Assembly: GCA_030649895.1 (NCBI GenBank)
Contig: JAUSEX010000037.1
Span: 3,815-67,814, forward strand
Reading direction: 5' to 3'
Source of the DNA: Candidatus Omnitrophota bacterium
Lineage (GTDB): Bacteria > Omnitrophota > Gorgyraeia > Gorgyraeales > Gorgyraeaceae
Length of the DNA: 64,000 nt
Shown: piece by piece, positions 24,001 to 42,711 of the stretch
How the letters are laid out: each line of letters starts with the position of its first letter
Position numbering within the stretch: the first letter of the stretch is position 1
The notes under the pieces: generated by a model
Database searches by the model: none
What the model saw: the letters and a program-made list of their open reading frames with translations, nothing else
Told to the model about the DNA's origin: nothing
Translations under genes and position numbers: made by a program

Positions 24001-27000
24001 AGATACGAGTAGCTATAAAAAATCCAAAAGATGTTTATTATAAAGATGTGCCCGAAGAAGAAATCCCCTCATCTATTGACTATACGGAACTTACGATCGT
24101 TTCTAGAGATAGGCCGGGATTGGTCAGAGATATAGAGACCGTAATTGCTGAATACGGGGGCAATTTAACACGGCCGGCATTTGGGGCGATGAATGATGAA
24201 GGAATGGCGCGGTTGATTTATGAAATTAACCATGCTGAACGAAAAAATGCTTTTAATAGTAGAGAAATAGAAGAATTACGAAAAGCACTTTTAAAAATAA
24301 AGGTCGGCTTGGCGCCTCTTTCTATTAAACCAGAGTATGGATTCGAGGGTTGGAGAAAGGTCGAAGGGGATGCGGATGCTTATGAAGGAAAATTAGTTAT
24401 TGATGGCAATGTCATGGATCTGAAAGTTGTAAAATCTGCAAGTTCTTTCGAATATTTTCTGGGGTATGAAGGGGGGCCTGCGGGGTATGCTAGGATTTTA
24501 TTTAACAACAAAAAGCTTAAAGTCCATTATTTAGAACTTTCCCCTTCGTTTAGAAAGGCGATTGGCGATATTTCAGCAGCCAAAGTATTAATGAATATTA
24601 TGATCAGAGATTTATTCTTTATCGGAAGCCAGGATTTATCAGGGCTAATAGTCCAGGTAGTCATGAATGAAGATTCATCTACGCCTAAAGTAAATAATCT
24701 AATCGGAGGATTCGGGATAACCGAGTTTAACAGAGAAAAAGTAATGTCTATAATAATGGATGAAAAATCTAAAATTAGTATCGAAGAGACTAAGGCTCCT
24801 CATGAAGGCGTGCCGTATTTCAGGGTAGTATTGGAAGGAAAGCTGCCGCTAAAGATTTTTCTTAAAGCACGTTTAGAATATTCGTACAAAGACAAAAGGA
24901 CTTGGATTATTAGCAGGAAGATTTACGAACAAATGGAATCAGATGCAAGGTATAAACTAGGACAGGCTCCTCTGCAAGTCAAAGAACAGGCCCGGCTTAA
25001 AGGAGAATTAGCAAGAAGGCTCCAAGAAGACGAGGTTTTTGTCGGAGGAGTTGATTTTTATATGGATCCTGACAAAGTAGAGTGGCTTGAAGAGCATACT
25101 GCATCGTTGCCAGAGAATCCTTGGTTAGTAATTGATGACCTTGGTTCTGCTCATGCTCCAAGAGAGCAAAATGCGCCATCTCTTTTAGCCAATCTTTTCA
25201 CCGGAAAATGGAGTAAGTTTAATTGGGCGACAAGGGCTGTTTTTTCACTTGCTATAGTGCCGCATGAGGTTGGACATCTTTTTATGGCAAAAATAACCAA
25301 AACCCCTTTATTAAGAAAACTCTATATAGAAGATTTATCCAGTAAGATGCCTATAGCCGAAAGAGCCTCTCCAATAGTTCATTTAGCAGGATTGTTTGTA
25401 AATGCCTCTGTCGCTATTGCTTCAGCCTTTACTTTGCATTTCTTTGGCCACGCAGTTATAGATTTTACAAATCCTTTAGCTGGAATCCTCTCTTACGTCT
25501 TTCTTGCCAATAGCATTCTTTTTGCCTTAGAAATAATATTAGATGCTACCACTAAGCTTAGAGGAGATGTAACTAACGCAATTTTTGGACGCTCAGGATT
25601 TGCTAGTCAAATTAATGTACAGAGAGCTAAAAATATATTTTTCACATTCAAGGAATATATGAACGAGGCCTTGTATAACCCGGATTGGGGGTATTATGCA
25701 AGCGGCCGCGTAAAAATAGGGACTGTCAGAAAGGGGAGCGATTTTATTACTTACCCTTTGAAGCTATCTCCGCTATTTGGCGGAATGATTGCTGAACAGG
25801 CATTTAAGATGTGGGAGGGGATGGTCAGGGCAGGCACAATTACAGAAAATGAACAGTTTACTATTTTAGAGTTTGGCGGCGGAGACGGAACGCTGGCTTA
25901 TGATATTCTTTCACGCGCAAGCCAGAAGGCCCTGGATAATCCTGACTGGGCAAAGTTTTACAGAGCCCTACTTTATACTATAGGTGACCGCTCGCCTCCC
26001 TTGATTGAAATCCAAAAAAAGAAAAATGCGCGGTTTAATGGTAAATTTAATACGGTTTTAGTTGATGCGCTGAATCCTCTCGAGGGAGGCGTTTTCAAGC
26101 CCTCCTCTATAAAAGGCCTGATTCTTTCCAATGAATTGCTGGACGTTTCCGGCCACCAGAAACTTATCGTTTATCCGGACGGAGATATCAAGGTAACGCT
26201 ATCTATCCCAAAAATATCTTTAGCCTTGCTAGGCAATTTACCTAAAGACAAACAGAATGAGTTAGTTAAAAGAAATGAAGAGTTAATCTCGGAATTTAAG
26301 CTCCCTTTAACCGACGGGATATATCTTTCCAGGGATGATTTCTTGGCCCTGAAGGCTTATCTTAGGGATCTGGGCCCTGAGCAGGAGAATCTGTTTAATC
26401 AGGAAATAAGATTTATAGAAATTTATATTGACCCTATATATGTTCCGGAGGTCCTTAGCTATATTCAGGAGAATAAAGAAAGCATAGATGGATTTGTAGC
26501 TGATAATGAAAAGCCATTCGCTGTTTATATTAATCCTGATGGGGCGGGATACATCCAGGGCGCCGGAGAGATCCTGGATAAAGGCTACATCCTGACCATA
26601 GATTATGGCGGGTTATCGGATTATATTCTTGACCCTCAATATGAGCACCTTCTTATAATAAAAAATGGCTCAAGGGACGCTGATCCCTATAGCCTTCCTG
26701 GCCAACGAGATATCTCCGCTGAACAAAATTTTACTGATCTGGCAGCCGCTGGCCAAAAGATAGGGCTCAATACAGTATTTTACGGTAACCAGGCCCATCT
26801 TGAAGAAGGCGTGACTCCTTTAACGAGCCAATCTCTTTTGGAGGAGCTGGCAAAAAGGTTTCAGGGCCAGGAGCCTGGCTTATCTTCAGAGGAGGCTATG
26901 AAAAAAGCCAGGAGAGAAGTTGATGAATTCAGGCTTAGCGGAATCATTAATGATCCAGGTAGGAGCCCGTATAAGATGCTCATTCAACAGAAACCAGGGA

Positions 27001-30000
27001 CTGATAGCAAATATGTGTTTCCCGCTAGCTTGCTTCAATATACCGGGGAGAATAAAAGTAATGCTGGTCAGTCAATGCTCAAAATATTAGCTCCTTTTAT
27101 CGCAATAGTATTTATTGCCTGGTTCTTTATCAGCATTGTATTAGCGGCGCATACTGCGAATGCAGCTGGCTCTGGCAGCGCGGGGGCGCAGAACCGTGTT
27201 ATCCATCAACAGGAGGATGCGCGGATGATCCAGACTCCCGAGGTTGACATTCGTCCTGACGGTTTCTATGTTGAGAATAGAAGGATATTTATTGGGGCGG
27301 GAGTAAATTTCAGGATTTTGGATTATGACAACAATTTTGGGGCATATAGGCGGGTAACTGATTATCCTGAACAAGTAAAGGCTGAGCTGGCTGCTATACG
27401 CAGTATATCTCAGAGAGGGACTGTTGTTATCCGCGTGGGGTTATTGGATTCAGGGGTTAATTACTTTAAAGGCGAAGGTAATTATGCAAATATTCGGGAT
27501 GATGTGATTGCTTTCCTGCAATGGGCAAAGGATAACAATGTTATGGTAGAGTTTGTTCTAGCTGATTACCTGTTGGCTGCTCGTCATTCTGATGCCTTGA
27601 CCCATGATATTACCAGACAGGATATCACCCAAAGATTCTTAGGGGATTTGGTAAGGGATATCAAAGCTGATCCTAAGGCATTTTTAAGCCTCTGGGGATT
27701 TGATTTATACAATGAACCGGAATGGTCTGTCAGCCAAAGCTTTGGCGGTGGATGGGAGTATGTTACAGGAGAAAGGCCTGAACAGCCGATACCAATTGTG
27801 GATATGAACGCCTATTTTAATGAGGCTTACGAAACTATAAAGTCTATTGCTCCTGAAAAGTTCGTCACTATCGGCGTTTCAGCAAAGCATTTTAGCGTCA
27901 TAGGCGCAATAAAGGATAGGTTAGATTATTTTGCCCTGCATTACTATGCTTGGATGGGGCCTTTAGAAAGCTATGTCAGTCAGCTCCCGGAGAATAAACC
28001 TTGGCTATTAGAGGAATATCCCAGCAGAGACGAAGGTATGAATATCGAACCCGCTGTTTACTTGGATAATCTCTTAAATCTATGGAATACAGGTAAGCCT
28101 GCTTCAGGCGGATTAATCTGGATGTGGAGGCCAATCATAGGGCAGGCGGATGAAAATACCTCTGATGAAATGGTCGCTAAGCTTAGAGATTGGACTGCGC
28201 AACATCAAAATGAATTGGAAGGTAAATTTGGCCTGTTTCTTCCTCTAGTGTTCGGTTTTGCTTTAAAGCGTAAAGGAAACTTCTCGGAAACAGGAGAAGA
28301 TTCCTCGGAATTAGTTGATTGGAAAGCAGAATGCGATAGCCTTCCTATTCAGGCATATGATTCGGATTATTTTGTCGCTGCCAAGATATGGTCTTATAAA
28401 GGACTCAAGGTATTTTTTATTCCAGACCACAAATTCGAACACACCTTATTAAACCTGATGCGAAAGGCCTTAGGTTTTAAGTTTAGAGAGATACTTTCAG
28501 ATGCGCACGATGACGCAAGCTATCCGACTGAATATAAACCTTTGGATCCCGGAGAAGCCAGCGAGGGAGAAATTATTGATCGTTCCAATGCCTTAACTTC
28601 TGCGAATTGGCGTATGGCTCTTATAAAAGACGGGACCATCGCGGATTCTTATGACTTGTCGGTAATTAAGGCAGATGAGGGCGAAGGCCGGATACTTAAA
28701 CTGCGTTTAGCGCAATTTCCGGCAGTTACGCCTTCGAAAACAGATGAGACTATTTTAATTATTGAGAATGATTCTTTTGGTATATTTGACAGTAAAGAAC
28801 TTGAAAGAGCAATTAGTGAGTATGTCGACGCGCTTTTTAAACTTAATATTGAATTTGACGATGTTATTTTTGTAGACGCAGGAGATAAACTGTCTAACTG
28901 GATGATCGGCCCGCCAAGCACGCGTTATTATAGAGAACATATCTTGCGATTTTTATTGGCTAAACTTGCTGAGAAATACGAAGGCGGCGTAGATTATTCT
29001 ACGCAAAGAAGAAATGATCCCGCAAAAGAGATTAAAGGCGCAGAGGGAGATAGAATGGCAAATGGGGGTGTTCCCCGATCTGAGATGCAATCCGAGGCAT
29101 CAAAAGAAGAGCGGCAGCGTGATATCGATACGCAATTTATAGGCTTATTATACAGGGCTGCGTTTAATAGGCTGCCTGACATAAGGCATGATTTCGCTAG
29201 CGTGGTACGGGAAATGATAAGGGCAATGGCGGCTTACCGCGAATACTATCTTCTTTCTTCCACTCCCGTCAGAAGCCCGGATTCTATTACGCTGAAACTG
29301 CTCAAGGAAAGTATCGGCCAGGATGGAAAATTCCTTAATGTTAATTCTCATGCAGTTATGCAGCTGCGCATGGTAAGAGAGGTTTTTTCAGCAGATGCAA
29401 TGGTAGCAGCAATTGGTTATGATGACAAGAATGCCGAACTTCCGGTTATCGATCGCGTGTTATCATTAAAAACCGATGACTTGATTCGATATATTGAGAA
29501 GAATAAAAATAATATTGGTAAATCAAGGTTCAAAATATTACCTCTAGCGATACTATTTGGCGGATTTGCAGAAATGTTTTGGGGTTTTCCCTCTATTGCT
29601 CAGTCAGCGGGCTTAGAGGAGGCAGTAAATCAGAGAGCGTTCTTTCAGTCATTATTTTCCGAAACAACCTTGATAACCTTGGGGGCAATACTATTTACAT
29701 CTGTATCAATTGTAGGAGTAACTTTATCTTTATATAGGGTTTTTAAGCATAACTCCAAAAATGTAAGAGAACCTTCTCCTGCTCCTGACAAAGATCTAGC
29801 AAATGCTTCTGTTTGGGCTTTAGAAAGGATTTTGCATATTATAGATGAATTAAGCCGTGCAGGGGAAGAAGGAATCAGGCAGCTATTAGAGGAGATGAAA
29901 AAGAATTCTGAGAGCGTAGGCGTTGGAACAAGCCATGTAGAAGTTGCTGAAGAAGCTGATAGATCAAAAAATCAAGGACTAGGCGTTACGTTATACTCTG

Positions 30001-32007: not shown

Positions 32008-32040
32008 TGTATAGTAGGATGTCCCCGGATAGGACGTCCC
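32008..32040 (-). repeat. REP-like element copy (reverse orientation) with 5' GTAG, just upstream of the HExxH gene's probable start
   Basis: tgtataGTAGgatgtccccggataggacgtccc. Near-identical to 33891-33922. Confidence 0.6.
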
Positions 32041-32042
32041 AT

Positions 32043-33179
32043 ATGCATAGTCCTAGGCCTATTCTAAAGTTTATCTCTATTCTTATTGTTTTTATCTTTA
32101 ACTTTGAAAGTGTGGGACATTGCTTGCGGGTGCCGATGGTAATTAATGAAGATAGGTTTAGAAAAGCTGAAAGCGATGTTGCGGGGAAAACAATAAAAAT
32201 AAAATATCAAAGCATTAATGATGTTGTCTTGCAAGAGGTTAAAGAAGGCGAAGCAGGCTTTGAATTAGCAATGCAAGTTAGATATCATGCATATGATTCA
32301 ATGGGGAAAGTTGAAAATGATTTACGAGAACAGTTAATTAGAAATAACTGGTGGCTTAAAGCTATGTGGACACAAAAAGGATTGCCAAAGGAGCAGATTT
32401 CTATAACTATAAATGGACATATAATTGATGCTTACAATTGGAATAATGAAAGATTATCAGAAGAACAAATATCTCAGATAAGAGATGTCTTAAGTAAGTT
32501 TGCAATAATTGCAGGCGGGATTGCTTTGAAAAGAGTTCGCTATATTCTTATTGATAATCTAAGGGAGATAAATCCAAAATCTAGAGAAGAAATAAATGGT
32601 CGTGGAACGGGTCATGATCAGGTGATTTGGCTATATTTAAGAGCCATTCGTCCTATTTCTCACCGCGTGGAAGGAGCTACGAATCTTGAAGGAACATTGA
32701 TTCATGAACTGTCTCACAGTCTTACGTATATTATAGAGATTGATTGGGCAAAAAAATTTGGATGGAGACGCTTAGGAAGCCCTAATAAAATATTTCTAGA
32801 TGGCTCATATAGTATGTGGCAATTAGAAATTCCTGCACGCGCTGTAACTACGTATGCTGGAGAGTTTGATCCAGGGGAAGATATTTGTGAGAGCATGGTA
32901 GCTGCTCTGAAAAATCCAGAAATCTTAGACAGGGAACGCCTTGATTTTTTAAGAGGAAGTTTTTTGCAACCTTTAGATGAAAGAGATAACGAAATTCATA
33001 TTTCTGTAGAAAGATTTTATAAAAATAATATAGTATTACCTGCTGTTGCATCGCCGGTTAGATTTAAGAGGCATATATTAGAGCTTGAAGAAATTCCTGT
33101 TGAGTACCAGGTTGATGAGGAGTCCCTAGCTAGTTGGTTCCCATCTTTTCAGCCAAGAGTTATTGACAACGCTATTTAA
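32043..33179 (+). CDS. HExxH-motif putative zinc metallopeptidase with N-terminal signal/anchor
   Basis: ORF 31986(TTG)-33179. I prefer the ATG at 32043 (MHSPRPILKFISILIVFIFNF... signal-like) because the REP-like element at 32008-32040 lies just upstream, as for neighbouring genes. GGAGGAG at 31973-31979 would support the 31986 TTG instead. Single HELSH motif (GTLIHELSHSL). Confidence 0.55.
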   Translation: MHSPRPILKFISILIVFIFNFESVGHCLRVPMVINEDRFRKAESDVAGKTIKIKYQSINDVVLQEVKEGEAGFELAMQVRYHAYDSMGKVENDLREQLIRNNWWLKAMWTQKGLPKEQISITINGHIIDAYNWNNERLSEEQISQIRDVLSKFAIIAGGIALKRVRYILIDNLREINPKSREEINGRGTGHDQVIWLYLRAIRPISHRVEGATNLEGTLIHELSHSLTYIIEIDWAKKFGWRRLGSPNKIFLDGSYSMWQLEIPARAVTTYAGEFDPGEDICESMVAALKNPEILDRERLDFLRGSFLQPLDERDNEIHISVERFYKNNIVLPAVASPVRFKRHILELEEIPVEYQVDEESLASWFPSFQPRVIDNAI

Positions 33180-33190
33180 ATCTATGAGAC

Positions 33191-33220
33191 GGGGGACGTC
33201 CTATAAAGGGACACCCTATA
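33191..33220 (+). repeat. REP-like element copy (forward orientation) upstream of rayT
   Basis: gggggacgtcctataaagggacaccctata. Confidence 0.6.
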
Positions 33221-33305
33221 GTTAAAAAATAATTAATTTATTTGAAAGAATTCACCCTATTTATGTGTCTATATAGTAGATACATAAAAAAAGGAGGGTG
33301 GATTT

Positions 33306-33896
33306 ATGCCAAGGGCAAAAAGGCTTGTAAGCGATGATACAGTGTTTCATATTGTACAAAGAGGCAATAATAAACAAACTATTTTTAAGGAAGATGAAGA
33401 TTTTGAAAGATTCCTATCCATAATAAGAAAATATCTATCTAAGTTTAAGGTAGAAATTTACCATTATTGCCTTATGAGAAACCATATACACATTCTATTG
33501 AAGATATTTAAAAAAGAAACATTAGCAAAGATTATGCAGGGGATTTTTCAGTCCTATAGGTTTTACTATAAGCGTAAATATGGCTATATAGGCTATCTAT
33601 ATCAAGGTAGATACAAAAGCGAATTAATCCAAGATGATAGCTATTTATCAGAGTGTGGCCGTTACATAGAAAGAAACCCTGTAAGGGCTGGTATAGTAAA
33701 AAAACCTTATGAATATAGATGGTCAAGTTGTAAGCATTATACATCTGGCCAAAAGGATGATATGGTTACAGAAAACCCACTTTATGAAAGCTTTGGTAAG
33801 ACTATAGAGGCTAGGCGCTATAGTTACGAAGAATATGTTTCTACGGCAAGGCCGTATGAGGAAATGATTGACAGGCAATTTGGGATTTATATATAG
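33306..33896 (+). CDS. rayT: IS200-like Y1 (HUH) transposase of the REP-associated (RAYT/COG1943) type
   Basis: Strong AGGAGGG RBS 8 nt upstream. Family signature is MPRAKR...FHIVQRGNNKQTIF.DEDFERFL...YHYCLMRNHIHILL (HUH = H-I-H) ... YLYQGRYKSELIQDDSYLSECGRYIERNPVRAGIV...YRWSS. Flanked by inverted REP-like elements at 33191-33220 and 33891-33922. Confidence 0.8.
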   Translation: MPRAKRLVSDDTVFHIVQRGNNKQTIFKEDEDFERFLSIIRKYLSKFKVEIYHYCLMRNHIHILLKIFKKETLAKIMQGIFQSYRFYYKRKYGYIGYLYQGRYKSELIQDDSYLSECGRYIERNPVRAGIVKKPYEYRWSSCKHYTSGQKDDMVTENPLYESFGKTIEARRYSYEEYVSTARPYEEMIDRQFGIYI

Positions 33897-33951
33897 CAGG
33901 GTGTCCCTGAATAGGACGTCCCGGATGTCGCGCGGATGTCGCGGATGTCGG
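33891..33951 (-). repeat. REP-like element copy (reverse orientation) immediately 3' of rayT, followed by 3 tandem ggatgtcgc units
   Basis: atatagcagggtgtccctgaataggacgtccc then ggatgtcgcgc-ggatgtcgc-ggatgtcgg. Forms an imperfect 8-bp hairpin GGGTGTCC...GGACGTCC. Confidence 0.6.
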
Positions 33952-33964
33952 ATTAACAAAAAGT

Positions 33965-35863
33965 ATGTTAAATTTAAAAAAAACTTTAAGCATAAAAATA
34001 ACATCATTAATTGTAGTTTTAACATTATTTGTTACGAGCTTAGCGTATTGTATAGAGCTGCCTGAAAGAAGTTATCTTAGGGTTCCTCTTTTAGGTAATT
34101 CAGATGAAGGAAGAGATAGATTAGCGAGAATAGGGACGTCTTATTCAGGGACAAATCCCGGCCAAAATATTTTTATTGGCGAAGAAAAGAAAACATTTTT
34201 AAATGTTTTAGGAGGGGCAGGAAAATCAGCTGTAATATTGCTTGCGGGTATTACTCTGCTGATTCTTCCAGCGTTAGCTGCTTGCGTACCAGAATCCAAG
34301 CCGGCGGTATCAGCGCCAACTGCTCAACTAACAGCTCAAGCAATTATTCAGCCGACTCAGACACCGAGGGCAACAGGGGCGCCATTGACTCCTACTCAGG
34401 CGGCGACTGTGAACAATCAAATAGCGATAGTAAATTGGATTAACGCTAATGTAGCTACGAATACAGGGTTACCTTTGAGTTTTAGAGTGCCTAAGAATTT
34501 TGATTGGAATAAAACGTTAGACGCGGATCATCGAATTATATTAAAGGAAGGATTGGTGCTTTATGACGCCGGGCTTGCCATGATAGTCTGGGCGAATACT
34601 AAGAATATTGCGCAAACAGATAGATTAATTAATGTTCTATGGAAAGATTCTTTAGGAGAGTTTAAAACTTTGCGGGCGTATTATGATCCTGCTGATATTC
34701 CAGGGCACCCATTTATCTACAGGGACCCTCGAGGTAATGATATCAGTCCTTTTGAACCAGGTAAGCGTGGGTATATATTCAAGATAATTAATGCAGAAGG
34801 CCATTATAGGATTACTGATCCGCTTACCGGCAAGCAGGTAACTTGGCAGCAATGGCAGCCTATTAGCGGTGAGAATAGCTGGTTTGCTAATATAGGAACG
34901 ATGCATACGTATTATAGCAAATACGGCTTAACATATAATCCTAATTCATTGGAGCTTAAATTAGCGGAAGAGGTTGCGCGGGCAGCGCTTTTATTGCAGG
35001 CTGATGATATTGGCGGCATACGCATGGCGCCTATTGGCACCTCGTCAGAAGGTGAAACCGGTAAAGACCCTCTTAAATTTAGGTTATTTTATGATGAAAT
35101 TTCCACAGAGAATAATCTTTCGGGTTATGCAGGATTGCGGATGCTTGCGCAAGTTACCGGAAAAGCAGAATATAAAAAGGCTATGTCAGGCATTGAAGCG
35201 TATTTTAAATGGGCATATGTGCCTGAGCTTGGTATTTTTGCTCAGGGCGCTCATTTTTATCCGGATAAAGGCTGGGTAAAAAATACCCTATTTGCTACGG
35301 ATGTCCAGACATGGGCAATTGATGCATTGGGACCTGATGTTATAGATGCTTGGTTTGGAGAAGGGACTGCTTACAGGATGTGGCAAAAAACAAAAGAATT
35401 AGCGGGCGTCCGCGATAGCAGCGGCAGGCTTATTGGCCTTGATTTTGCTGATTATCGCGCGATCGGGCGCCAACCTTTGAATAGCGGAGAATGGACAGGA
35501 GGGGGGATTACTGGCGTACTGGAGGCAGCAAAATTTTACGCCGTGTCTCATCCTGATTGGGCAGATGAGTTACAAAAAGATGCAGAAGCTATGCGCCTAG
35601 GCATGGAGAGCTTAAGGCTGTCAGAAGGAGACAAAACAGGGTATTCCTATTTTTCATGCGTGGTAACGCCTCGTGAATGTCCTGCAAATTACGGCTGGTA
35701 TTCTCCGCCGGAGGTGGGAAGTTTGGCGTCCACTGCATGGGCGTATTTTGTGGATACAGGATTTAATCCTTTTTTCTTTGGTGGAAAATCACCCGTGGAT
35801 CAAAAGAAGAAAACCAGCATGGCTGCGCCATTTCGCGTTACTGATATCCGAGGCGCTATTTAG
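33965..35863 (+). CDS. secreted/signal-anchored hypothetical protein (possible alpha-helical glycosidase-like fold, unassigned)
   Basis: ATG with N-terminal MLNLKKTLSIKITSLIVVLTLFVTSLAYC leader shared with the next gene. Pro/Thr/Ala-rich linker, then a W/Y-rich globular region. No family confidently recognised. Confidence 0.7.
   Translation: MLNLKKTLSIKITSLIVVLTLFVTSLAYCIELPERSYLRVPLLGNSDEGRDRLARIGTSYSGTNPGQNIFIGEEKKTFLNVLGGAGKSAVILLAGITLLILPALAACVPESKPAVSAPTAQLTAQAIIQPTQTPRATGAPLTPTQAATVNNQIAIVNWINANVATNTGLPLSFRVPKNFDWNKTLDADHRIILKEGLVLYDAGLAMIVWANTKNIAQTDRLINVLWKDSLGEFKTLRAYYDPADIPGHPFIYRDPRGNDISPFEPGKRGYIFKIINAEGHYRITDPLTGKQVTWQQWQPISGENSWFANIGTMHTYYSKYGLTYNPNSLELKLAEEVARAALLLQADDIGGIRMAPIGTSSEGETGKDPLKFRLFYDEISTENNLSGYAGLRMLAQVTGKAEYKKAMSGIEAYFKWAYVPELGIFAQGAHFYPDKGWVKNTLFATDVQTWAIDALGPDVIDAWFGEGTAYRMWQKTKELAGVRDSSGRLIGLDFADYRAIGRQPLNSGEWTGGGITGVLEAAKFYAVSHPDWADELQKDAEAMRLGMESLRLSEGDKTGYSYFSCVVTPRECPANYGWYSPPEVGSLASTAWAYFVDTGFNPFFFGGKSPVDQKKKTSMAAPFRVTDIRGAI
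33991..34128 (+). repeat. leader module A copy 1 (~138 nt; 5' coding region incl. signal peptide), ~90% identical to 35895-36032
   Basis: cataaaaataacatcattaattgtagttttaacattatttgttacRagcttagcgtattgtatagagctgcctgaaagaagttatct... shared. Confidence 0.8.
34130..34153 (+). repeat. REP-like element copy inside the 5' coding region of CDS 33965-35863
   Basis: atagggacgtcttattcagggaca equals the reverse complement of the 33899-33922 core with one mismatch. Confidence 0.5.
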
Positions 35864-35886
35864 AGTTAGAATAAGGGCGTTTTATT

Positions 35887-38800
35887 ATGTTAACTATAAA
35901 AATAACATCATTAATTGTAGTTTTAACATTATTTGTTACAAGCTTAGCGTATTGTATAGAGCTGCCTGAAAGAAGTTATCTCAGGACCCCTCTTTTAGGG
36001 AATTCAGATAAAGGGAGAGTCAGGTTAGCGGATGGATTGGGGCTAATGCCTTTGAACAGCAGGGTTATTGTGGGCATGCATGAAGGCGAATTGAATCTTT
36101 ATATCGAGGGCGTTGTCTCTGAGCAGGTAAAGCAGGATTTAAGAACTCTCTTGAATGCAAATCCGTATATTATAACGTATTCAATTAAAAGCATCTTTGA
36201 TGCCGACTCATTGGAATTCGAACCCTCTGAAATAACGGGTTTAAAATTAAAGAAGATCGGAGAAGGTATATATAAACGGGTTTTTTTGATAGAGGGAATC
36301 ATAACTCGCGACGGCCGTATTTTTCATAATTATCCTTTTGTCATGAAGATAACCAAGGGAGTGGATTTTGGCGATGTCCATTTGACAGAGGCGCATATAG
36401 GAGAAACTGCAAAGGCTGCGAATGAGTTAGCGCATAGCGATCCGCCGCTTCATCCAAGATTAGGAGGAGATTGGTTTTTTAATTTTGAGAATAGGAAATT
36501 TTGGGTCTTAACCGAAGGGTATGTCAGAGGCGTCAATTCAAAGATAAAAAGCGAAAGAATCGTAGAGGATGCTATATTGGGCAATGGTGATCCTGCTGCA
36601 AGAGATAAAATATTTTTAGAAACCGAAGAGAACGCTTTTTATGCGTATATTAAGGCGTGGAAGATATGGCGGGGACAGGAGCCGGTTGATACTGAAACGC
36701 TTTCTAGATTTATTGCTGACCCAAATCTGGAAAATATCGTAGATAAAATGCTGGTAGATCTGGATCTTTTATCCAGCAGCGCTAATGCCGGCTATCTCGT
36801 AAAAATTCTCTCGGAATGGTCAGACCTGGCTGACCGAGATAAAGGCCGTGTTATCTCGCGGGCTGCTCTCCGGGCCATTGGCAGAGAAGAAGGTATGAAG
36901 TTTTTAGCCGCAGCGAAGGATCAGATCGAAAATGGCATAAGCTATAAATATATCGCAAAGGCAATAGGTAATTTTTTGGAAGAGCAGTCTAAAGCGTTTT
37001 TGGCTTATTTTTATATTTTTAACGGCGAATTTAAAAAATTTATCAGGGTAAACCCAGTAATATTTAGAGGCATAGTAATGGATTTACAAAAAAATGAGCC
37101 GCTGAGAAAAGAACAGGAGGAAGGGATTGAAAAATTTTCCAAAGCTATGGATGAAATTTTTGAGCTAAGGGAGCTATATCTCATGGAAGAAGAGTATCCT
37201 AGCATTTGCGATTCTTATGCCGCAAGAGTAACGCAGATATTAAGGGATCATGGCATTGACGCGTCGCATGAAGTTTGTCGATGGCCAGAGCTGCAGATTC
37301 TCATGAGAGCCCCAAGCTATAATCCCGAGCATTATTTTGTTTTATCAAGAATCGCAGGATATGAATTTATCATTGATATTACAGCTGATCAGTTTGAAGT
37401 AAAAGATCTGTATGGAAATCCGCAGCAGTTAGGGTTGGTAGTGATACCCCTGGAAGTCGTCAGAAATAATCCGGATAAATTCTGGATGTACAATGGAAGA
37501 TTGTCTGCTTCTTTTGTTAATGTGCCGCTGGAGGAAAGATTGGATGCAGTTGAGATGCTATCCAGCGTGTTAAGGATATATGATGATGCAAAAAAAAGAA
37601 GCCTATCTTTAATCTTATGGCCTCAAACAGGAGAAAGCGTTTGGACGCGAGATCAGGCCAGGGTTAGAGTAGAAACGTTGCTGTTAGATATGAACGGTGA
37701 GGATGTAAACATAGCGAGGCGAGCGAGACATGAATTGGCGGCATCGAGGCAAAGAGCTGTTGAACCGTTATTAGATATTTTGAAAGAAACGGATGACTGG
37801 GAGCTAATGGAGAAGATTTATAAGGCTTTATTGATCGCCTGTGATCTTGTCAGCATCAGAAAGCTTCAGGATTTATATTTTAAACTGGAAGACGAATGGA
37901 AAAAAAATTGGATTCGTATCGCTTTAGAAAAGTTGATGCAATTAGATAGTTTTATTATGACCTATTCGCCAAAAGAAGGTAATGCGATCGAAAAAACTAC
38001 TTTTAAGAATAGGCTTGAAAAAGCGGAAGAATATATTTTAGGTTTAATCAGGGCTGACCCCGGAAGGATTAAGGTGATATTGGACTGCTGCGCTTCAGAT
38101 AGCAGCACTACCCTGGATATCGCAAAAAAAACCCATGGCGAAGATGAGGGCATAAAGATTATTGGAATGGATATCAATGAGATTCTTTATGTGGTCAGTG
38201 ACGCAGGAGGCAATGTGGCTGTATTTGATTCGCTGGATAACCTGGTTAGGTTAGATACGAAAGATGGATATTGGATAAGAAATTCCGAGGGTTGGGTTAA
38301 AGACGGCTATCATTTAGTTGAAGACGGGCCGGATAAAGAGGCTGTATCCTTATATGGAAGATTAAAGGAAACCTTACAGGCGCATCTGAGAAGAAAAATT
38401 GATATTTCAAAAAATGGCGTAGAACCTGATGCGTATAGCGATGGCCAGGGCAATAGAATAGAAGCTATATATCTTGTTAACCCTGAAGCTATAGAATGGG
38501 CAATGAGCCATAATTTAGAATTTATGCAGGGAGATTTTTTTAATTTAACAAATACCGTTGCGCAAAAAAGCGTAGATATAGCTATTGTCGGCAATGTTTT
38601 GGGGGAATATTATGAATATTATAGCCAAGATTCTACTTATGAGGCGCTAAAAGAAATAGGCCTTACGCTGAAAGAGGGCGGGAGGCTTATTATAGGAAAC
38701 AATCCTTCAAGAGTGATGACGGTAGATTTTCAGTTTCTTGTCTATGAACGCAAAGGCGATAATCTGGTATTAGTAGATATTGTTGGGCAGCCGCATATAT

Positions 38801-38895
38801 GGAAAGGTGAAGAAATAAAACAGATCGCTCTTAAATCGATTGAAAAAAGAGCGATTTCTATGCCTTTTTATTCTAATACCAGAGATCAGTTGTAG
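35887..38895 (+). CDS. secreted/signal-anchored multi-domain protein: transglutaminase-like Cys-protease-like core + C-terminal class I SAM-MTase-fold module
   Basis: N-terminal 30 aa almost identical to the previous gene. SICDSYAARVTQILRDHGIDA...HYFVL...IIDITADQ resembles the transglutaminase-like Cys-His-Asp core. The C-terminus has the MTase-fold motif order (ILDCCASDSS / IIGMDIN / VDIAIVGNVL / LKEGGRLIIG), with a degenerate motif I. Confidence 0.7.
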   Translation: MLTIKITSLIVVLTLFVTSLAYCIELPERSYLRTPLLGNSDKGRVRLADGLGLMPLNSRVIVGMHEGELNLYIEGVVSEQVKQDLRTLLNANPYIITYSIKSIFDADSLEFEPSEITGLKLKKIGEGIYKRVFLIEGIITRDGRIFHNYPFVMKITKGVDFGDVHLTEAHIGETAKAANELAHSDPPLHPRLGGDWFFNFENRKFWVLTEGYVRGVNSKIKSERIVEDAILGNGDPAARDKIFLETEENAFYAYIKAWKIWRGQEPVDTETLSRFIADPNLENIVDKMLVDLDLLSSSANAGYLVKILSEWSDLADRDKGRVISRAALRAIGREEGMKFLAAAKDQIENGISYKYIAKAIGNFLEEQSKAFLAYFYIFNGEFKKFIRVNPVIFRGIVMDLQKNEPLRKEQEEGIEKFSKAMDEIFELRELYLMEEEYPSICDSYAARVTQILRDHGIDASHEVCRWPELQILMRAPSYNPEHYFVLSRIAGYEFIIDITADQFEVKDLYGNPQQLGLVVIPLEVVRNNPDKFWMYNGRLSASFVNVPLEERLDAVEMLSSVLRIYDDAKKRSLSLILWPQTGESVWTRDQARVRVETLLLDMNGEDVNIARRARHELAASRQRAVEPLLDILKETDDWELMEKIYKALLIACDLVSIRKLQDLYFKLEDEWKKNWIRIALEKLMQLDSFIMTYSPKEGNAIEKTTFKNRLEKAEEYILGLIRADPGRIKVILDCCASDSSTTLDIAKKTHGEDEGIKIIGMDINEILYVVSDAGGNVAVFDSLDNLVRLDTKDGYWIRNSEGWVKDGYHLVEDGPDKEAVSLYGRLKETLQAHLRRKIDISKNGVEPDAYSDGQGNRIEAIYLVNPEAIEWAMSHNLEFMQGDFFNLTNTVAQKSVDIAIVGNVLGEYYEYYSQDSTYEALKEIGLTLKEGGRLIIGNNPSRVMTVDFQFLVYERKGDNLVLVDIVGQPHIWKGEEIKQIALKSIEKRAISMPFYSNTRDQL
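35895..36032 (+). repeat. leader module A copy 2
   Basis: see 33991-34128. Confidence 0.8.
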
Positions 38896-38896
38896 A

Positions 38897-38960
38897 GAGT
38901 TGTAGGGGGACGTTCTATTTGGAGTTGTAGGGGGACGTTCTATTTGGGGACACCCTATAC
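38897..38960 (+). repeat. two tandem 25-nt REP-like copies (AGTTGTAGGGGGACGTTCTATTTGG x2) + GGACACCCTATAC, overlapping stop codon of upstream gene; AGTTGTAG occurs 3 times
   Basis: Read directly at 38888-38960. Confidence 0.65.
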
Positions 38961-39125
38961 AAAGACAGGCTTTATGTTGAATATTAAAAAAATATTATTA
39001 ATCAGGGTAATAAGCTTATTACTTTCAATAAGCGTCGCGCTTCCAGACGCTGCCTATTCTCTATCTGAAAGCCTAAGAGTTCCATTAAATACCCCGGAAC
39101 TTAAAGAGCGGCAGGAAGAAGTTCA
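38923..39125 (+). repeat. leader module B copy 1 (REP-like motif + RBS + signal-peptide coding + LR[VA]PLNT.ELKERQEE), ~90% identical to 42680-42885
   Basis: ...tttatgttgaatattaaaaaaatattattaatcagggYaataagcttattRctttcaataagcgtcgcgcttccagRcgctgcctattctct... shared. Confidence 0.8.
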
Positions 39126-42100
39126 ACGATTTCTAACGCAGGACAAGGCAACTTCCACGCTTTTATCTCCTACGGTTTTAGTTACTGGTGGAGCAGGGTA
39201 TATTGGAAATTTTGTTGTCAGGCAGCTTCGCAGCAAAGGTTACAATGTGATTATTTATGACAGGGCTACTCGCCCGGAACTTGCATTGGAAAAGCTTAAA
39301 TATATACAAGGGGACTTGGGTGATCGCAAGCGTTTGGATGAAGTTTTTAAGGCGGAGCATGTTAATGCAGTTATCCATTTGGCTGCTTTAATTCAAGTGC
39401 CGGAATCAGTCAGGCGGCCAGCGGCTTACTATGAAAATAACTTTATTAATACGCTCGCTCTTCTAGATACTATGGCAAAGCATAGGGTAAGAAGTATTGT
39501 GTTTTCATCATCTGCCGCAGTGTATGGCGAGGGCTCTGAAGAGCTGCTGACAGAACAAACCAATGTTAATCCGGCTAATCCTTATGGTGAAACAAAATGG
39601 CTTATGGAAGAAGCTATGCGGGCCTATGAAAAACGTTATGGTATTCATTCAGTGGCGTTACGCTATTTTAATGCAGCCGGGGCAGCAATGGATGGCTCGG
39701 TTGGCGAAGCCCATCAGCCTGAAACGCATATTATTCCGAGTTTATTGGAGAAGGCGGTTAAAAAAAGAGAGAAGCTGCCTATCCGCAGAGGTTATCCTAC
39801 GCCGGACGGTACAGCGATCCGGGACTTTGTCCATGTGGAAGATTTAGCGCGAGCACATACCCTTGCATTAGACTACATAGTTCGCGAACAGCATAGCGAT
39901 ATTTTTAATCTTGGTACCGGGTCTGGGACATCAGTGCGGGAGATAGTAGAAAGCATTGAAAGGCTGACCGGGGAAGATGTCCCAATAGAGCTTTCTGCTC
40001 CGCGATCAGGAGGCGTAGCGCGGCTTGTAGCTAGTTTTACAAAGGCGCAGGCGCGTTTGGGCTGGATGCCTATATTAGGTATTGAGCAGATTCTTGAGTC
40101 TGCATTGAAATGGCATAGCAACAGGCCTATCATGACTCAGCAGCAAGGCGAAAATATTTTTATGGGCAGCCATGGCGAAGCTCAGGCATTTGAGCGCGTA
40201 ATATCACAGCTTAGGTCTAATTTTGTAATTGGTGATTCATTGCGCGAAGAAGTCATGGTTCGTCTTGCAAAAAGGATGCAGGTATTACTTAAAGAAGCGG
40301 ATCAGGCTGACGCAGAAGAGATATTGCGCGTTATATTTGCAAGTAACACGTGGCTGGTTAGCAGAGAAAAGCGCATTGTCAATGACCAGGAGTTAATGGC
40401 GCTGCTTGCAAAAAGCCTGGCTATTTCGCTGCGGCGCGAAGACGCAAAAGAAATTGCAGAATTCCTTAACGCGCTTCTGAACCATTATCCTGAAAATTTA
40501 CTGCCTGAAGCTAAGCGATTAATTCATTCATATTTAGTTGTCTATAATATCGATAGGCCATTGAAGATAGCTACTGTTGTTTCCCGCTATGGAGGCCAGA
40601 TCAGAATATTAAGGCCGGAAAATCATCCTCTTGGGGAGAATAATCTGCGGTTGAAACTAGAGCAGCTGGAAGAGCTTTACGGTATAAATACTAATGTTTA
40701 CTGGGAGTTGATTTTAGTTCAGGATGGGGACGATAGGAAGCCTGAAGATCCACTCAGGCGCCTGCGCACTATTGATATGGATAGGGATATTGTATTGGTT
40801 GAGCATCCTGATTACTTTGCTTCAGGAAGAGTGAGGCTTTATGAGCTGGATCAACAAGAGAAGCTGCGTTTAGGCAGCGTGCGTACCGGGGCTACTACTT
40901 ATGGCGCCCGCCAAGCCATAAGAAATGGCGCTGATTTTGTAGTTATTACAGATGGCGATGTATCAGCCCATATTGGACAGGAAGGACTTTTGCTTGAGCC
41001 TCAATTGAAAGGTGAAAAAATAGTTGCTGTTGGGTCACGCAGCGCTAGCGGTTCAATAGTGCGCGGCCGCAAACTTATCCGTCGTATTATAAGCCCGGGG
41101 TTTAATATTTTTTCCCGCTTGTTTTTGTCTTTGGGGCCTATCCGTGATACTCAATGTGGTTTTAAAGCTTACAGCCGTCAAGTGTTAGAAGATATTTTAC
41201 CTGTAAATAAGGATAATAGATTTGATATCGAATTTGCCTATAATTTTTCTGGCGAAGTAAATCTCCTTTGGAGGGCCAGGCTTTCCGGATATCAATTAAA
41301 AGAAATACCTATTGCCTGGTTTGATACTCCTACAACTACAGTAAAGCGCAGCGATATTATAAATATGGCCAAAGGCGTTTTAAGGCAAAGAGCTTATTTG
41401 GACAAATGGAAAAAAAGAACACCATCTGGCCAGGAGACAGAGACTATTTCTCTTCCAGGCAGCACAAAGGCGTGGGACCTTCAGTATAGAATAATGCCTA
41501 TAGAAGAAAAAATCAAAGTAGCCATGTCTAAATATGATTTAGGCGTTGCTTCTTTTGAAGATATCCGTTACGAAGAACTAAGGGGTGGAGTTCCTAACAG
41601 GCTTCCATTGAGACTGGAAACTCCTTTGGGAAATTTTGCCTTAAAACAGATTGCGCTTACATTGGAAGAGGCAAGATTTTGCGTTTCAGTGCTTCGCAGG
41701 CTTCAAAAAGAAAAGTTGCCTATCCCGGCATTAGTAAAGACTAAAGATTTTCCTGACGAGAAAACAGACAGCTATTTTATAAAAATAGGCACTTATTTTT
41801 ATATCTTGGAAGAATTTAAGGAGGGCCGATATGTTGATCGCTTACAGGCTGAGCCAGCCCATTTTTATAGCATAGGAAAGATAATGGCGGATATCCATCA
41901 TATTCTTGCTGGCTTTACACCGGAGGGGCAGAAAACAGCTGCTCCTGTAATAGATATCTTACGGCATAGGCGCGAGTTTCAGCAGCTAAGGGGAAGATTA
42001 AGAAACAGGGAAACTTTACAATTAAAAGCAGGAGAAATTTTATTTTTATATTTATATGAAGAAATTATGCAGCAGTTCGATATTTTAGAGAATAATCTTT

Positions 42101-42666
42101 CCGAATCAATTTACAATAGTTTGCCCAGAGTTGTTGTCCATGGAGACGCTTCTTTTCCAAATATATTATTTTCTGATACGGGAGAAGTTGTTGCTTTGCT
42201 TGACTGGGAACGGTCCAGGATTCAGCCGCGCGTAGAAGATTTTAAGAATACTATAATGACGGTTGATCCGATACAGGGCCGCACCTATGATTTTGACAGC
42301 TTGGTAGAACTGGTAGCTGCTTATCAGGCACATACTGCTGATAAGCTTACAGAGGCAGAATTGCGGGCTATACCCGAAGTTTTAAGGGCAACGTTTCTCT
42401 GGGAATTCGCTTCTCGTTTTATGTCTAGGATTTCAGAATTGGAACAAAAAGAAGGAATGGACAGGCTTGACAATATGCTTTTAAAGTTTCAGAGTTTTAA
42501 AAAAGATTTCCCTGGTACAAATGAGAGTATTCAAAGATTTATAAAGGAAGTAAACTCAAAAAGCCGAGAAATATTAATAGGCCCTGCTGAATCCCAGGAG
42601 CCTGTCTTTGAGATAAAGAGGGCGCTTGAAGAAGATGGATCGCCTGTTTTGCGTAATCAGATTTAA
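38974..42666 (+). CDS. signal-peptide-bearing tri-domain fusion: NAD-dependent sugar epimerase (GalE-like) + family-2 glycosyltransferase (DPM1-like) + APH/choline-kinase-like phosphotransferase
   Basis: ATG at 38974 (ORF-track TTG 38944 overlaps the repeat element). Signal peptide MLNIKKILLIRVISLLLSISVALPDAAYS. Epimerase: VLVTGGAGYIGNFVV (Rossmann GxxGxxG) ... YGETKW (YxxxK) ... matches GalE. GT2: LVQDGDD ... FVVITDGD ... DTQCGFKAYSRQ. Kinase: VVVHGDASFPNILF ... LLDWERS. Confidence 0.8.
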   Translation: MLNIKKILLIRVISLLLSISVALPDAAYSLSESLRVPLNTPELKERQEEVQRFLTQDKATSTLLSPTVLVTGGAGYIGNFVVRQLRSKGYNVIIYDRATRPELALEKLKYIQGDLGDRKRLDEVFKAEHVNAVIHLAALIQVPESVRRPAAYYENNFINTLALLDTMAKHRVRSIVFSSSAAVYGEGSEELLTEQTNVNPANPYGETKWLMEEAMRAYEKRYGIHSVALRYFNAAGAAMDGSVGEAHQPETHIIPSLLEKAVKKREKLPIRRGYPTPDGTAIRDFVHVEDLARAHTLALDYIVREQHSDIFNLGTGSGTSVREIVESIERLTGEDVPIELSAPRSGGVARLVASFTKAQARLGWMPILGIEQILESALKWHSNRPIMTQQQGENIFMGSHGEAQAFERVISQLRSNFVIGDSLREEVMVRLAKRMQVLLKEADQADAEEILRVIFASNTWLVSREKRIVNDQELMALLAKSLAISLRREDAKEIAEFLNALLNHYPENLLPEAKRLIHSYLVVYNIDRPLKIATVVSRYGGQIRILRPENHPLGENNLRLKLEQLEELYGINTNVYWELILVQDGDDRKPEDPLRRLRTIDMDRDIVLVEHPDYFASGRVRLYELDQQEKLRLGSVRTGATTYGARQAIRNGADFVVITDGDVSAHIGQEGLLLEPQLKGEKIVAVGSRSASGSIVRGRKLIRRIISPGFNIFSRLFLSLGPIRDTQCGFKAYSRQVLEDILPVNKDNRFDIEFAYNFSGEVNLLWRARLSGYQLKEIPIAWFDTPTTTVKRSDIINMAKGVLRQRAYLDKWKKRTPSGQETETISLPGSTKAWDLQYRIMPIEEKIKVAMSKYDLGVASFEDIRYEELRGGVPNRLPLRLETPLGNFALKQIALTLEEARFCVSVLRRLQKEKLPIPALVKTKDFPDEKTDSYFIKIGTYFYILEEFKEGRYVDRLQAEPAHFYSIGKIMADIHHILAGFTPEGQKTAAPVIDILRHRREFQQLRGRLRNRETLQLKAGEILFLYLYEEIMQQFDILENNLSESIYNSLPRVVVHGDASFPNILFSDTGEVVALLDWERSRIQPRVEDFKNTIMTVDPIQGRTYDFDSLVELVAAYQAHTADKLTEAELRAIPEVLRATFLWEFASRFMSRISELEQKEGMDRLDNMLLKFQSFKKDFPGTNESIQRFIKEVNSKSREILIGPAESQEPVFEIKRALEEDGSPVLRNQI

Positions 42667-42679
42667 AAAAAGCAAAGGA

Positions 42680-42711
42680 CTAGGGACGTTCTATTCGGGG
42701 ACACCCCATAC
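42680..42711 (+). repeat. REP-like element copy upstream of CDS 42725
   Basis: ctagggacgttctattcggggacaccccatac. Confidence 0.6.

Follow-up and report, generated by a model that had tools for sequence, protein, structure and literature searches.

The gene rayT, which lies in a 64,000-nucleotide stretch of Omnitrophota DNA (the whole of which is termed the window here), encodes a domesticated-type, RAYT-class transposase and is bracketed by two inverted copies of a repeat; the same inverted arrangement surrounds more than 60 homologous genes, nearly all of them from Omnitrophota. Judged from its sequence, the region is probably a gene, together with its cognate repeat, of the reference class described as TIRYT or TIRtron (Di Nocera, De Gregorio & Rocco 2013; PMC3733652), as TnpA-Y1 subclass 2.1 (Quentin et al. 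2018; PMC6006769) and as RAYT group 1 (Bertels et al. 2017; PMC5581495). Elements of this kind have been described before. Nor does the repeat act as a signal set before every gene.

A RAYT-class gene and its inverted repeats

The rayT gene (33306-33896, plus strand) is intact and specifies a 196-aa Y1/HUH tyrosine transposase with the motifs NHIH, YQGRY, YIERNP and WSS. The product matched the Pfam family PF01797 (Y1_Tnp) at 55.9 bits, and its scores against the NCBIfam models REP_Tyr_transpos (NF047646, an equivalog model; 63.8 bits) and IS200 (NF033573; 20.3) lay under the respective cut-offs of 80 and 55. In a 30-sequence alignment H60 and H62 of NHIH, Y120, N124 and P125 of YIERNP, and S140 and S141 of WSS were all invariant, and the best PDB match was a distant relative, E. 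coli TnpA-REP (4ER8; E 9e-4). With the HUH and tyrosine residues invariant and 4ER8 the closest structure, the identification of the ORF as a RAYT-class Y1/HUH protein, made in an earlier sequence-only reading, is upheld. A Pfam scan of the 196-aa protein returned Y1_Tnp at residues 13-124 alone, with no distal C-terminal HTH-like domain, and protein length across the family is 194-197 aa. The exact protein was matched on a single 5.9-kb Logan contig, which terminates inside the common leader described below.

Both arms of the rayT-flanking pair were recovered by a motif search and by an inverted-repeat search. The upstream arm, copy b (33193-33216, plus strand), ends 89 nt before the rayT ATG, and the downstream arm, copy c (33899-33922, minus strand), has the rayT stop codon within its inner flank; the two are inverted and 92% complementary. 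The order of inverted repeat, rayT and inverted repeat, which had been proposed previously, was borne out and is conserved in the homologous loci. Indeed, unbiased flank-to-flank alignment of 69 such loci, whose proteins range from 100% to about 42% identity, recovered at most of them an inverted pair of the same bipartite design, with one arm at the stop codon and the other ~60-130 nt upstream of the ATG. Among loci selected by motif pattern, the repeat variant follows protein divergence or clade (rho 0.33; 0 of 999 permutations was as high), and in the same motif-pattern-selected set identity across loci was ~80% in the two blocks of the repeat, 45% in the spacer between them and 27-31% in the adjoining non-coding DNA.

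Published TIRYT genes have terminal inverted repeats, many of which contain GGGG[AT][CG]A[CG] (PMC3733652). Plasmid-borne proteobacterial homologues of 39% identity (in R. rubrum and P. aeruginosa) have perfect inverted repeats with GGGGTCAG or GGGGACAG, which conform to this published motif. Like the TIRYT systems, the region combines a RAYT-like Y1/HUH gene not with palindromic REPs but with terminal inverted repeats set at a more or less constant distance from it; the repeats begin GGGG[AT][CG] and constitute a moderate-sized family of singles, dimers and clusters. The protein motifs NHIH, (L)YQ, YIERNP and WSS are near matches, not identities, to those listed for subclass 2.1 (NHVH or NH[YF]H; W[EQ] or FQ; YIELNP or Y[IV]HLNP; an SS tail; Table 1 of PMC6006769). 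The rayT protein is smaller than the TIRYT proteins (196 aa; their median is 238), and no distal HTH or DnaA_C-like domain could be detected in it; a distal C-terminal HTH-like domain (Bac_DnaA_C, HTH_23 or HTH_28) is reported for TIRYT examples in subclass 2.1, within which subgroup 2.1.2 is heterogeneous for the domain (PMC6006769). The Omnitrophota repeat also departs from the published class in being bipartite, in carrying strict GGGGWSAS in some clades only (11 of the 38 loci tabulated; an outer-end GGGGAC is general), and in the tandem duplications at its outer flank, a feature unmentioned in the three surveys of the class, whose coverage did not extend to Omnitrophota, the host in this case (PMC3733652, PMC6006769, PMC5581495).

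It could be argued that the gene and its two ends are instead an autonomous insertion sequence of the IS200/IS605 type, mobile as a unit and present in several identical copies. The rayT protein shares with that group the Y1/HUH fold and PF01797, a truncated second copy of its 3' end, accompanied by a repeat, is found 1.3 kb upstream of the gene, homologues are also found on plasmids, and many homologues occur on contigs of <1 kb that contain the gene alone, as expected if assemblies break at repeats. It should be emphasized, however, that the ends are inverted and are not same-strand subterminal hairpins, that the tyrosine motif is Y---NP (class 2) and not Y---Q (class 1), and that the IS200 model score is short of its cut-off. 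There is, in addition, no tnpB and no sign of multiple near-identical copies (the upstream relic has diverged to 79% identity over its clearest stretch), and most of the dispersed repeats have no copy of the gene within 8 kb. We regard an insertion sequence of this type as very unlikely, and assignment to the TIRYT class is preferred.

The repeat unit and its dispersal

Each repeat unit measures about 24-26 nt and is bipartite, with block 1, (G)GGGACGTCC, and block 2, GGGACACCC, on either side of a variable 6-nt spacer. The blocks, 9-10 nt each, are related to one another and the spacer is free; in the rayT arms block 2 faces inward. The sequence GGGGACAC was found in two of the window copies, f and g.

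A different view of this unit, in part also put forward from the window alone, is that it is a classical REP/REPIN, that is, a 24-nt imperfect palindrome that as single-stranded DNA forms a hairpin (GGGTGTCC / GGACGTCC) with two G.T pairs and that the RAYT recognises along with a GTAG-like 5' tag. Such systems in E. coli and Pseudomonas (REP/REPIN-RAYT; subclasses 2.2 and 2.5; 4ER8) do resemble the Omnitrophota family, in that the enzymes are homologous, inverted repeats flank the gene, copies are extragenic, gene-less inverted doublets give rise to long hairpins, and the arms often differ in their spacers in a heterodimer-like manner. The layout of the flanking arms and of the convergent pairs is thus REPIN-like, and the proposed 8-bp stem has some backing from the alignment, in which 88% of cells pair (standard or wobble) compared with 42-56% in slid controls, and 14 double-sided changes were counted against 5.8 +/- 1.8 in shuffles. 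Copy a, in which a G.T pair is replaced by A-T, folds best (-5.4 kcal/mol, z -2.0). Against a palindrome, the three inner pairs of the stem are broken in 25-39% of the variants, and eleven single units folded as single-stranded DNA gave weak structures that vary from unit to unit (-1.2 to -5.9 kcal/mol) and were no better than shuffles (z +0.8 to -2.1). The GTAG tetranucleotide is present in the window, solely at the two units of a 25-nt duplication, but it does not stand as a tag, since it is unconserved, 5 of 103 unique copies having it no more than 9 nt from their outer end.

Copy number bears on the same question. Classical REPs are present in tens to hundreds of copies per genome, and a similar abundance, with an extragenic distribution, had been anticipated for the repeat studied here. 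The distribution was indeed extragenic (70 of 82 copies), but there were only 1-7 exact copies per species-representative assembly, many of them at contig ends. In the scan of species-representative genomes the exact motif occurred in 22 DNA stretches from ten assemblies, labelled as Omnitrophota or Omnitrophica (four), uncultured Planctomycetia or Planctomycetales (five) and 'uncultured bacterium' (one). When variants were counted two assemblies held at least 8-9 copies, and a complete 1.14-Mb chromosome had one; the copy number appears to be about ten per genome. The words that flank RAYT group 1 genes have about a dozen occurrences per replicon (PMC5581495), and subclass 2.1 is described as REP-less (PMC6006769). 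Together with the absence of a convincing palindrome, the unconserved GTAG and the NCBIfam REP_Tyr_transpos score of 63.8, below the equivalog cut-off of 80, the apparently low copy number makes a classical REP/REPIN an unlikely identity for the repeat. The TIRYT-type repeat that is favoured here is found as singles, as convergent dimers (L005, L006, L009, L010, L013, which has two, L016 and L022) and as clusters (the window; L004 with L019). In other genomes it adjoins tRNAs and unrelated genes and often forms convergent pairs 10-65 nt apart. Folding energies of such pairs were -18 to -28 kcal/mol (z -4.7 to -8.2), and their two arms frequently differ in spacer. Inspection by eye of two convergent dimers, L009 and L016, revealed no target-site duplications around them, and a search of viral contigs for the motif found none.

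Repeat copies and leader modules in the window

Five full copies of GGGACGTYCTATNNNGGGACAYCC are present in the window, against a chance expectation of none. When three mismatches were allowed, a search for GGGACGTYCTATNNNGGGACACCC located five matches, at 32017-32040 (minus strand), 33193-33216 (plus), 33899-33922 (minus), 38932-38955 (plus) and 42683-42706 (plus), and had 0 matches in 100 shuffles. A search with the 5' half, GGGACGTYYTAT, added a degenerate copy at 34133 and a half copy at 38907. Seven copies had been claimed previously; five of these are full and the remaining two are the degenerate and the half copy. All lie within 32,017-42,706, and the motif search of the remaining 53 kb of the window yielded no additional copies.

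The outermost copy, a (GGGACGTCCTATCCGGGGACATCC, one mismatch, 32.2 bits; 32017-32040, minus strand), is fused to a relic of another RAYT gene copy, a frameshifted pseudogene fragment (31918-32016, plus strand) that corresponds to the 3' end. The relic aligns with the 3' end of rayT, 31976-32045 being 79% identical to 33858-33927, and its translation, containing AIENRRSAYKEYICTPR, matches the C-terminus of the family. With 79% identity over its clearest stretch, the relic is not a recent copy. The ATG at 32043 is only 2 nt beyond copy a, yet the copy faces away from that gene. Copy d (34133-34156, plus strand; GGGACGTCTTATTCAGGGACAAAT, 18.2 bits) is degenerate and lies inside the ORF 33965-35863 (gene 3), between the common leader and a second hydrophobic segment bearing a lipobox-like sequence. 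Copies f (38932-38955, plus strand) and g (42683-42706, plus strand) are each 18 nt upstream of an ATG, at 38974 (gene 5) and 42725 (gene 6), respectively. Relative to the downstream gene, copies a and c face away, and f and g face toward it.

The genes of this cassette share leaders of two types. Leader type A (33986-34126, plus strand) has a 91% identical twin at 35890-36030, which no repeat adjoins. Leader type B is part of a duplicated block (38932-39121, plus strand; twin 42683-42884) that comprises the repeat, a ribosome-binding site and the first 49 codons; the twins, about 190 nt long, are 92-93% identical and the proteins are otherwise unrelated. Leader sharing among the cassette genes is real and the repeat is dispensable for it, as the leader is common to genes 3 and 4 and gene 4 has no repeat. 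Neither Pfam nor NCBIfam has a model for the leader family, and tblastn of the five leaders against all fetched loci gave weak matches alone (L004, L022 and L024), with no constant spacing to the repeat.

These arrangements invite the proposal that the repeat is a dedicated cis-regulatory site, its two GGGAC half-sites acting as a direct-repeat operator or promoter of the leader-bearing cassette and the transposase-like gene being a bystander. In its favour, genes 5 and 6 each have a forward copy 18 nt ahead of the ATG and rayT has one at 89 nt, block 2 is in many cases succeeded by a TAnnnT-like hexamer, and at L004 three copies are situated 84-100 nt upstream of co-directional genes, one of them leader-bearing. 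However, the idea that one copy precedes every gene fails, in that gene 4 (35887-38895) has no copy upstream, the copy at 34133 is within an ORF and the orientations are mixed, with copies a and c opposite. Copies f and g, moreover, are not independent, as both belong to one duplicated block. A sigma-70 promoter and terminator scan of 31800-43000 showed no enrichment and no site at the motif, and Rfam at gathering thresholds, applied to the whole window, detected a tRNA and nothing else. A shared regulatory signal is also hard to reconcile with the copies elsewhere, which adjoin tRNAs and unrelated genes or stand as face-to-face pairs 10-65 nt apart, a layout that makes no sense for a promoter or operator. 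The only constant partner across the >60 loci is the transposase gene, into the 3' end of which one arm points. A dedicated regulatory site is, in our estimation, highly improbable.

The forward copies upstream of rayT, gene 5 and gene 6 may nevertheless contribute to expression in a secondary way.

Flank duplications and a model for the element

Two of the window copies have exact tandem duplications at their outer flank. A period-11 tract, GGATGTCGC(GC) repeated three times (33922-33951, plus strand), abuts the outer end of copy c and stops 1 nt before GACG. An exact 25-nt duplication, GAGTTGTAGGGGGACGTTCTATTTG repeated twice (38897-38946, plus strand), extends from the outer flank through nucleotide 15 of the repeat, and thereby creates the half copy at 38907. 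Exact flank duplications stopping 0-2 nt before GACG were found at 15 of 104 copies; by strict criteria duplications affected the outer flank of 18 of 105 copies, the inner flank of 1 of 105 and 0.3% of random positions. The position at which they stop suggests that the duplications mark a defined candidate nick or stall site at the outer repeat end. In the proteobacterial TIRYT loci, examined by eye, there was one tandem 10-mer, in R. rubrum, on the inner side.

To our knowledge no TIRYT or group-1 RAYT has been studied biochemically, and no activity has been demonstrated for any. The linkage of the gene to the repeat and their co-variation, with the flank duplications as a hint, suggest that the repeat is the recognition site of the rayT enzyme, which would nick it at or beside the outer end (GGG|GACG). 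The pair of inverted copies bracketing rayT, of which the downstream arm overlaps the stop codon, would be the primary arrangement, and the other copies in the window would be secondary products of the same system. Within this scheme 31918-32040 is most readily seen as what is left of another gene copy, truncated but still joined to its 3' arm, and copy d as a decayed repeat inside gene 3, while another copy appears to have been duplicated, along with a ribosome-binding site and signal-peptide leader, upstream of genes 5 and 6. Nicking may occasionally seed solo copies and gene-less convergent pairs across the genome, to about ten per genome, and the convergent pairs, when single-stranded, would form long hairpins with an internal loop. 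Any effects on the expression of neighbouring genes would be incidental.

A more far-reaching scenario is that repeated nicking at a fixed point, GGG|GACG, at the outer end of each repeat, with slipped resynthesis, leaves the flank duplications, and that these breaks help to carry preassembled modules, each with a repeat, a ribosome-binding site and a secretion leader, to positions ahead of unrelated genes for cytoplasmic-type enzymes beside the giant gene. A domesticated transposase would then be a generator of new secreted effectors in Omnitrophota, a speculation that we think unlikely to prove correct.

Currently genes of this family are annotated merely as 'transposase', and the result provides their correct label across Omnitrophota; it also explains why Omnitrophota genome assemblies break at this gene. 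The family offers several leads, namely a compact 196-aa enzyme, a very well-conserved 24-nt bipartite site, natural gene-less dimers and a candidate cleavage point at the flank duplications. The leader modules that unrelated enzymes beside the giant gene have in common are a further lead in their own right, perhaps of greater interest.

A RAYT-class gene between inverted repeats

A motif search of the window identified five copies of GGGACGTYCTATNNNGGGACAYCC, at 32017 (-), 33193 (+), 33899 (-), 38932 (+) and 42683 (+), referred to here as copies a, b, c, f and g, respectively; no copy occurred in 100 shuffles of the sequence. The 5' half of the repeat is found at two more sites, 34133, a decayed copy (copy d) inside the ORF 33965-35863 (gene 3), and 38907, a half copy made by an exact 25-nt tandem duplication (38897-38946). 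A profile derived from all the repeat copies detected no further copy in the 64 kb, and the motif coordinates and copy count of the sequence-only reading are correct.

The ORF between copies b and c (rayT; 33306-33896) encodes a 196-residue protein that matches Pfam Y1_Tnp (55.9 bits), and which scores 63.8 bits against the NCBIfam model 'REP-associated tyrosine transposase', below the curated 80, and just 20.3 bits against IS200 in NCBIfam. A search of 5.8 billion proteins returned 915 relatives at E <= 1e-10; nearly all those that are named are 'transposase [Candidatus Omnitrophota]', and many are on contigs of <1 kb with no other gene. Aligning 30 relatives with identities as low as 48% showed H60 and H62 (NHIH), R102, Y120-I-E-R-N-P and S140-S141 to be invariant. 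The profile of this alignment retrieved a single solved structure, that of E. coli TnpA-REP (4ER8, E 9e-4), with the match spanning the HuH, WQ/YQ, Y---NP and W.FS motifs. The HUH (H60, H62) and Tyr (Y120) residues, on the presence of which the proposed RAYT identity had been staked, are thus conserved, and the ORF is RAYT-class.

When one genome per bacterial and archaeal species was scanned for the exact pattern, the motif was located in only 22 DNA stretches from ten assemblies, labelled Omnitrophota/Omnitrophica (four), uncultured Planctomycetia/Planctomycetales (five) and 'uncultured bacterium' (one). The 24-nt repeat is nearly invariant across the motif-bearing species. Just one scanned locus, L018, contains a rayT homologue, and here inverted copies bracket the gene exactly as in the window. 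The flanks of homologues were also collected from public assemblies and a metagenome scan, and the upstream flank was aligned, with no imposed motif, to the reverse-complemented downstream flank. The order inverted repeat, gene, inverted repeat, proposed for the window, recurs in most of the 69 homologous loci with both flanks as a pair of single architecture, comprising block 1, (G)GGGACG(T/G)(T)CC, a 5-7-nt spacer, often unlike between the two arms, and block 2, G(G/T)(G/A)(A/C)CACCC; the upstream arm precedes the ATG by ~60-130 nt, and the downstream one is located at the stop codon. Repeat variants follow the protein tree: CAGACGTCC...GGTACACCC accompanies proteins at 53-65% identity, GGGACGGTCC...GTGCCACCCC those at 50-58% and GGGACGTTCCCC...GTACCACCC those at 43-48%, and divergence of repeat and protein is correlated (rho 0.33; 0 of 999 permutations as high in a Mantel-like test). 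Identity is ~80% in the blocks, which is partly built in as the loci were chosen with the motif pattern, 45% in the spacer and 27-31% in neighbouring non-coding DNA.

Cassette leaders and local history

It had been suggested that every cassette gene is preceded by one copy, and that the repeat may act as a shared cis-regulatory signal for these genes. Neither that placement nor a signal dedicated to the cassette survives inspection of the locus, as the gene at 35887-38895 (gene 4) has no copy, copy d is intragenic and orientations are mixed, with a and c opposite to f and g. Copy a directly abuts a frameshifted relic, 31918-32016, which corresponds to the last ~33 codons of a second rayT copy, indicating that the gene-plus-arm unit was once duplicated or rearranged here. 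In genes 5 and 6 a block that begins at the outer repeat edge and takes in the ribosome-binding site and 49 codons (38932-39121 and 42683-42884) displays 92-93% nucleotide identity, and the two proteins are unrelated outside this block; copies f and g did not arise as independent insertions. Genes 3 and 4 have the other leader type in common (33986-34126 and 35890-36030; 91% identical) and, as gene 4 has the leader but no repeat, leader sharing is independent of the repeat. Leaders that are 91-93% identical on otherwise unlike proteins point to recent recombination or gene conversion confined to the 5' ends. That the left edge of the block coincides with the repeat edge means little, as just 16-36 nt separate it from the end of the preceding gene.

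All five cassette starts (32043, 33965, 35887, 38974 and 42725) encode a hydrophobic, signal-like helix and then LR[VTA]P[LM], fused to cytoplasmic-type enzymes; gene 5, for example, contains GalE (364 bits), a GT2-like domain and a CotS/APH kinase domain. Similar leaders (..SLRNPM.., ..KLRVPL.., ..SLRPIL..) occur on unrelated enzymes in another Omnitrophota assembly (L004; 56-1789, 1804-2670 and 4774-7311 (-)). No model in Pfam or NCBIfam covers the leader, which may act as a sorting or processing signal specific to this lineage. In gene 3 a second hydrophobic segment (34157-34300), ending in a lipobox-like LAAC, directly follows the decayed copy d; the arrangement suggests that the shared leader was placed before a pre-existing lipoprotein gene. 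Copies c (33902-33931) and d (34124-34153), which are 192 nt apart and flank the gene 3 start codon and leader, are 83% complementary over 30 nt, such that the mRNA could form a long-range stem.

The low-GC window (~40%) is dominated by one ORF of 10,611 codons (33..31868 (+)), open at the window start, which is consistent with the giant genes known from Omnitrophota. Downstream of this ORF are a same-strand gene run, a two-component system and a cluster for sugar uptake; at 54-60 kb, genes for a solute-binding protein, an ABC permease and a glycosidase agree with the neighbourhood reported downstream of Omnitrophota giant genes. Other Omnitrophota likewise have rayT homologues no more than a few kb from very long genes (L029 1-6856, L026 3-3605 and 5779-9573, L025 1-2175), the long gene of L029 being at least 4,407 aa. 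A transposase followed by a TPR protein gene is kept in both L026 and L029, and L026 contains a second Y1_Tnp gene (weak match, 222 aa, 12498-13166) 2.2 kb downstream of the RAYT homologue. The only public contig with an identical rayT protein, L001 (Logan contig SRR13727527_47415; 5.9 kb), stops inside the shared leader of gene 3, which shows that short-read assemblies break at these repeats.

Folding and abundance of the repeat

The repeat had also been read as a REP-like palindromic element. When 11 single units were folded as ssDNA on both strands, energies were -1.2 to -5.9 kcal/mol (z +0.8 to -2.1 versus shuffles), and the predicted structures vary between units. Across 72 distinct 26-nt units the proposed 8-bp hairpin pairs in 88% of cells, compared with 42-56% in slid controls, with 14 double-sided changes against 5.8 +/- 1.8 in shuffles; five pairs barely vary, two are G.T in almost all copies and three inner pairs are broken in 25-39% of variants. 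The GTAG tetranucleotide is present in the window, solely at the two units of the 25-nt duplication, but does not hold as a tag, as just 5 of 103 unique copies have it close to the outer end. A crude ORF call places 70 of 82 copies outside genes. Copies are few, not the tens to hundreds anticipated: motif-bearing assemblies in the species scan contain 1-7 exact matches, many within 200 nt of a contig end, two fragmentary assemblies at least 8-9 copies and a complete 1.14-Mb chromosome one exact match. A classical palindromic REP is unlikely in view of the weak single-unit folding, the lack of a conserved GTAG and the low copy number.

Dispersed copies are often convergent pairs, 10-65 nt apart, in the relative orientation of the arms around the gene. 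These pairs fold strongly (-18 to -28 kcal/mol, z -4.7 to -8.2) through block-block pairing, the spacers usually forming an internal loop, and some retain a trace of the gene 3' end beside the inner arm (L010), as expected for deletion derivatives.

Flank duplications and the TIR-flanked RAYT branch

At many copies the outer flank contains exact short tandem duplications, such as GGGAGCAAC x2, CACGAACTAG x2 and TAAATCGGG x2, and in the window GGATGTCGC(GC) x3 at 33922-33951. The units, 6-11 nt in, for example, L008, L013, L022, L025 and L029, end 0-2 nt before GACG. Under strict criteria (exact, period 7-14, ending <=5 nt from the boundary) duplications were found at the outer flank of 18 of 105 copies, the inner flank of 1 of 105 and 0.3% of random positions in the same loci (binomial p ~1e-25; Fisher p 2e-5), and 15 of 27 periodic tracts stop 0, 1 or 2 nt short of GACG. 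The duplicated unit is unlike at each site, even between the two arms of one gene, and thus the duplications are scars and not binding sites. The 25-nt duplication in the window and partial 5' copies (L022, L024, L039, L047) resemble the same event on a larger scale. We infer from these scars that replication stalls, or a nick is made, at a specific site, GGG|GACG, after which slipped resynthesis from the free 3' end would generate the duplications, marks of the kind expected of an HUH enzyme that attaches to the 5' phosphate. The TIRYT/RAYT surveys of Di Nocera 2013, Quentin 2018 and Bertels 2017 make no mention of this signature.

Di Nocera et al. 2013 (PMC3733652) set RAYT genes with REPs apart from RAYT-like genes with terminal inverted repeats (TIRYTs, TIRtrons); GGGGWSAS is common to many TIRYT repeats, whose distance to the gene is similar and which occur as singles, dimers and clusters in families of moderate abundance. 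Most TIRYTs belong to TnpA-Y1 subclass 2.1, characterized by NHVH/NH[YF]H, W[EQ]/FQ, YIELNP, an SS tail and 'no REP', and corresponding to Bertels' RAYT group 1 (Quentin et al. 2018, PMC6006769), for which the flanking word has ~12 genome-wide occurrences versus 57-140 for REPIN-associated groups (Bertels et al. 2017, PMC5581495). The rayT protein motifs NHIH, YQ, YIERNP and WSS fit subclass 2.1 and, as in TIRYTs, the window repeat starts GGGGAC and includes GGGGACAC. The best plasmid matches to rayT are 'transposases' of P. aeruginosa and Rhodospirillum rubrum plasmids, at 39% identity (E 5e-34 and 5e-32); perfect inverted repeats, 32 nt and 19 nt long, lie on either side of these genes and contain GGGGACAG and GGGGTCAG. 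In contrast with the TIRYT class, the Omnitrophota proteins are short (194-197 aa versus a median of 238) and have no distal HTH-like domain detectable by Pfam search, the repeat is bipartite and the strict 8-mer GGGGWSAS is present in just 11 of 38 tabulated loci. Taken together, the comparisons indicate that the repeat family is real and that rayT belongs to the known TIR-flanked RAYT branch, not to the classical palindromic REPs. The phylum Omnitrophota is a host of this branch not previously described, and to the biology of the family the locus brings two modest additions, a bipartite site with foldable gene-less dimers and the flank-duplication signature.
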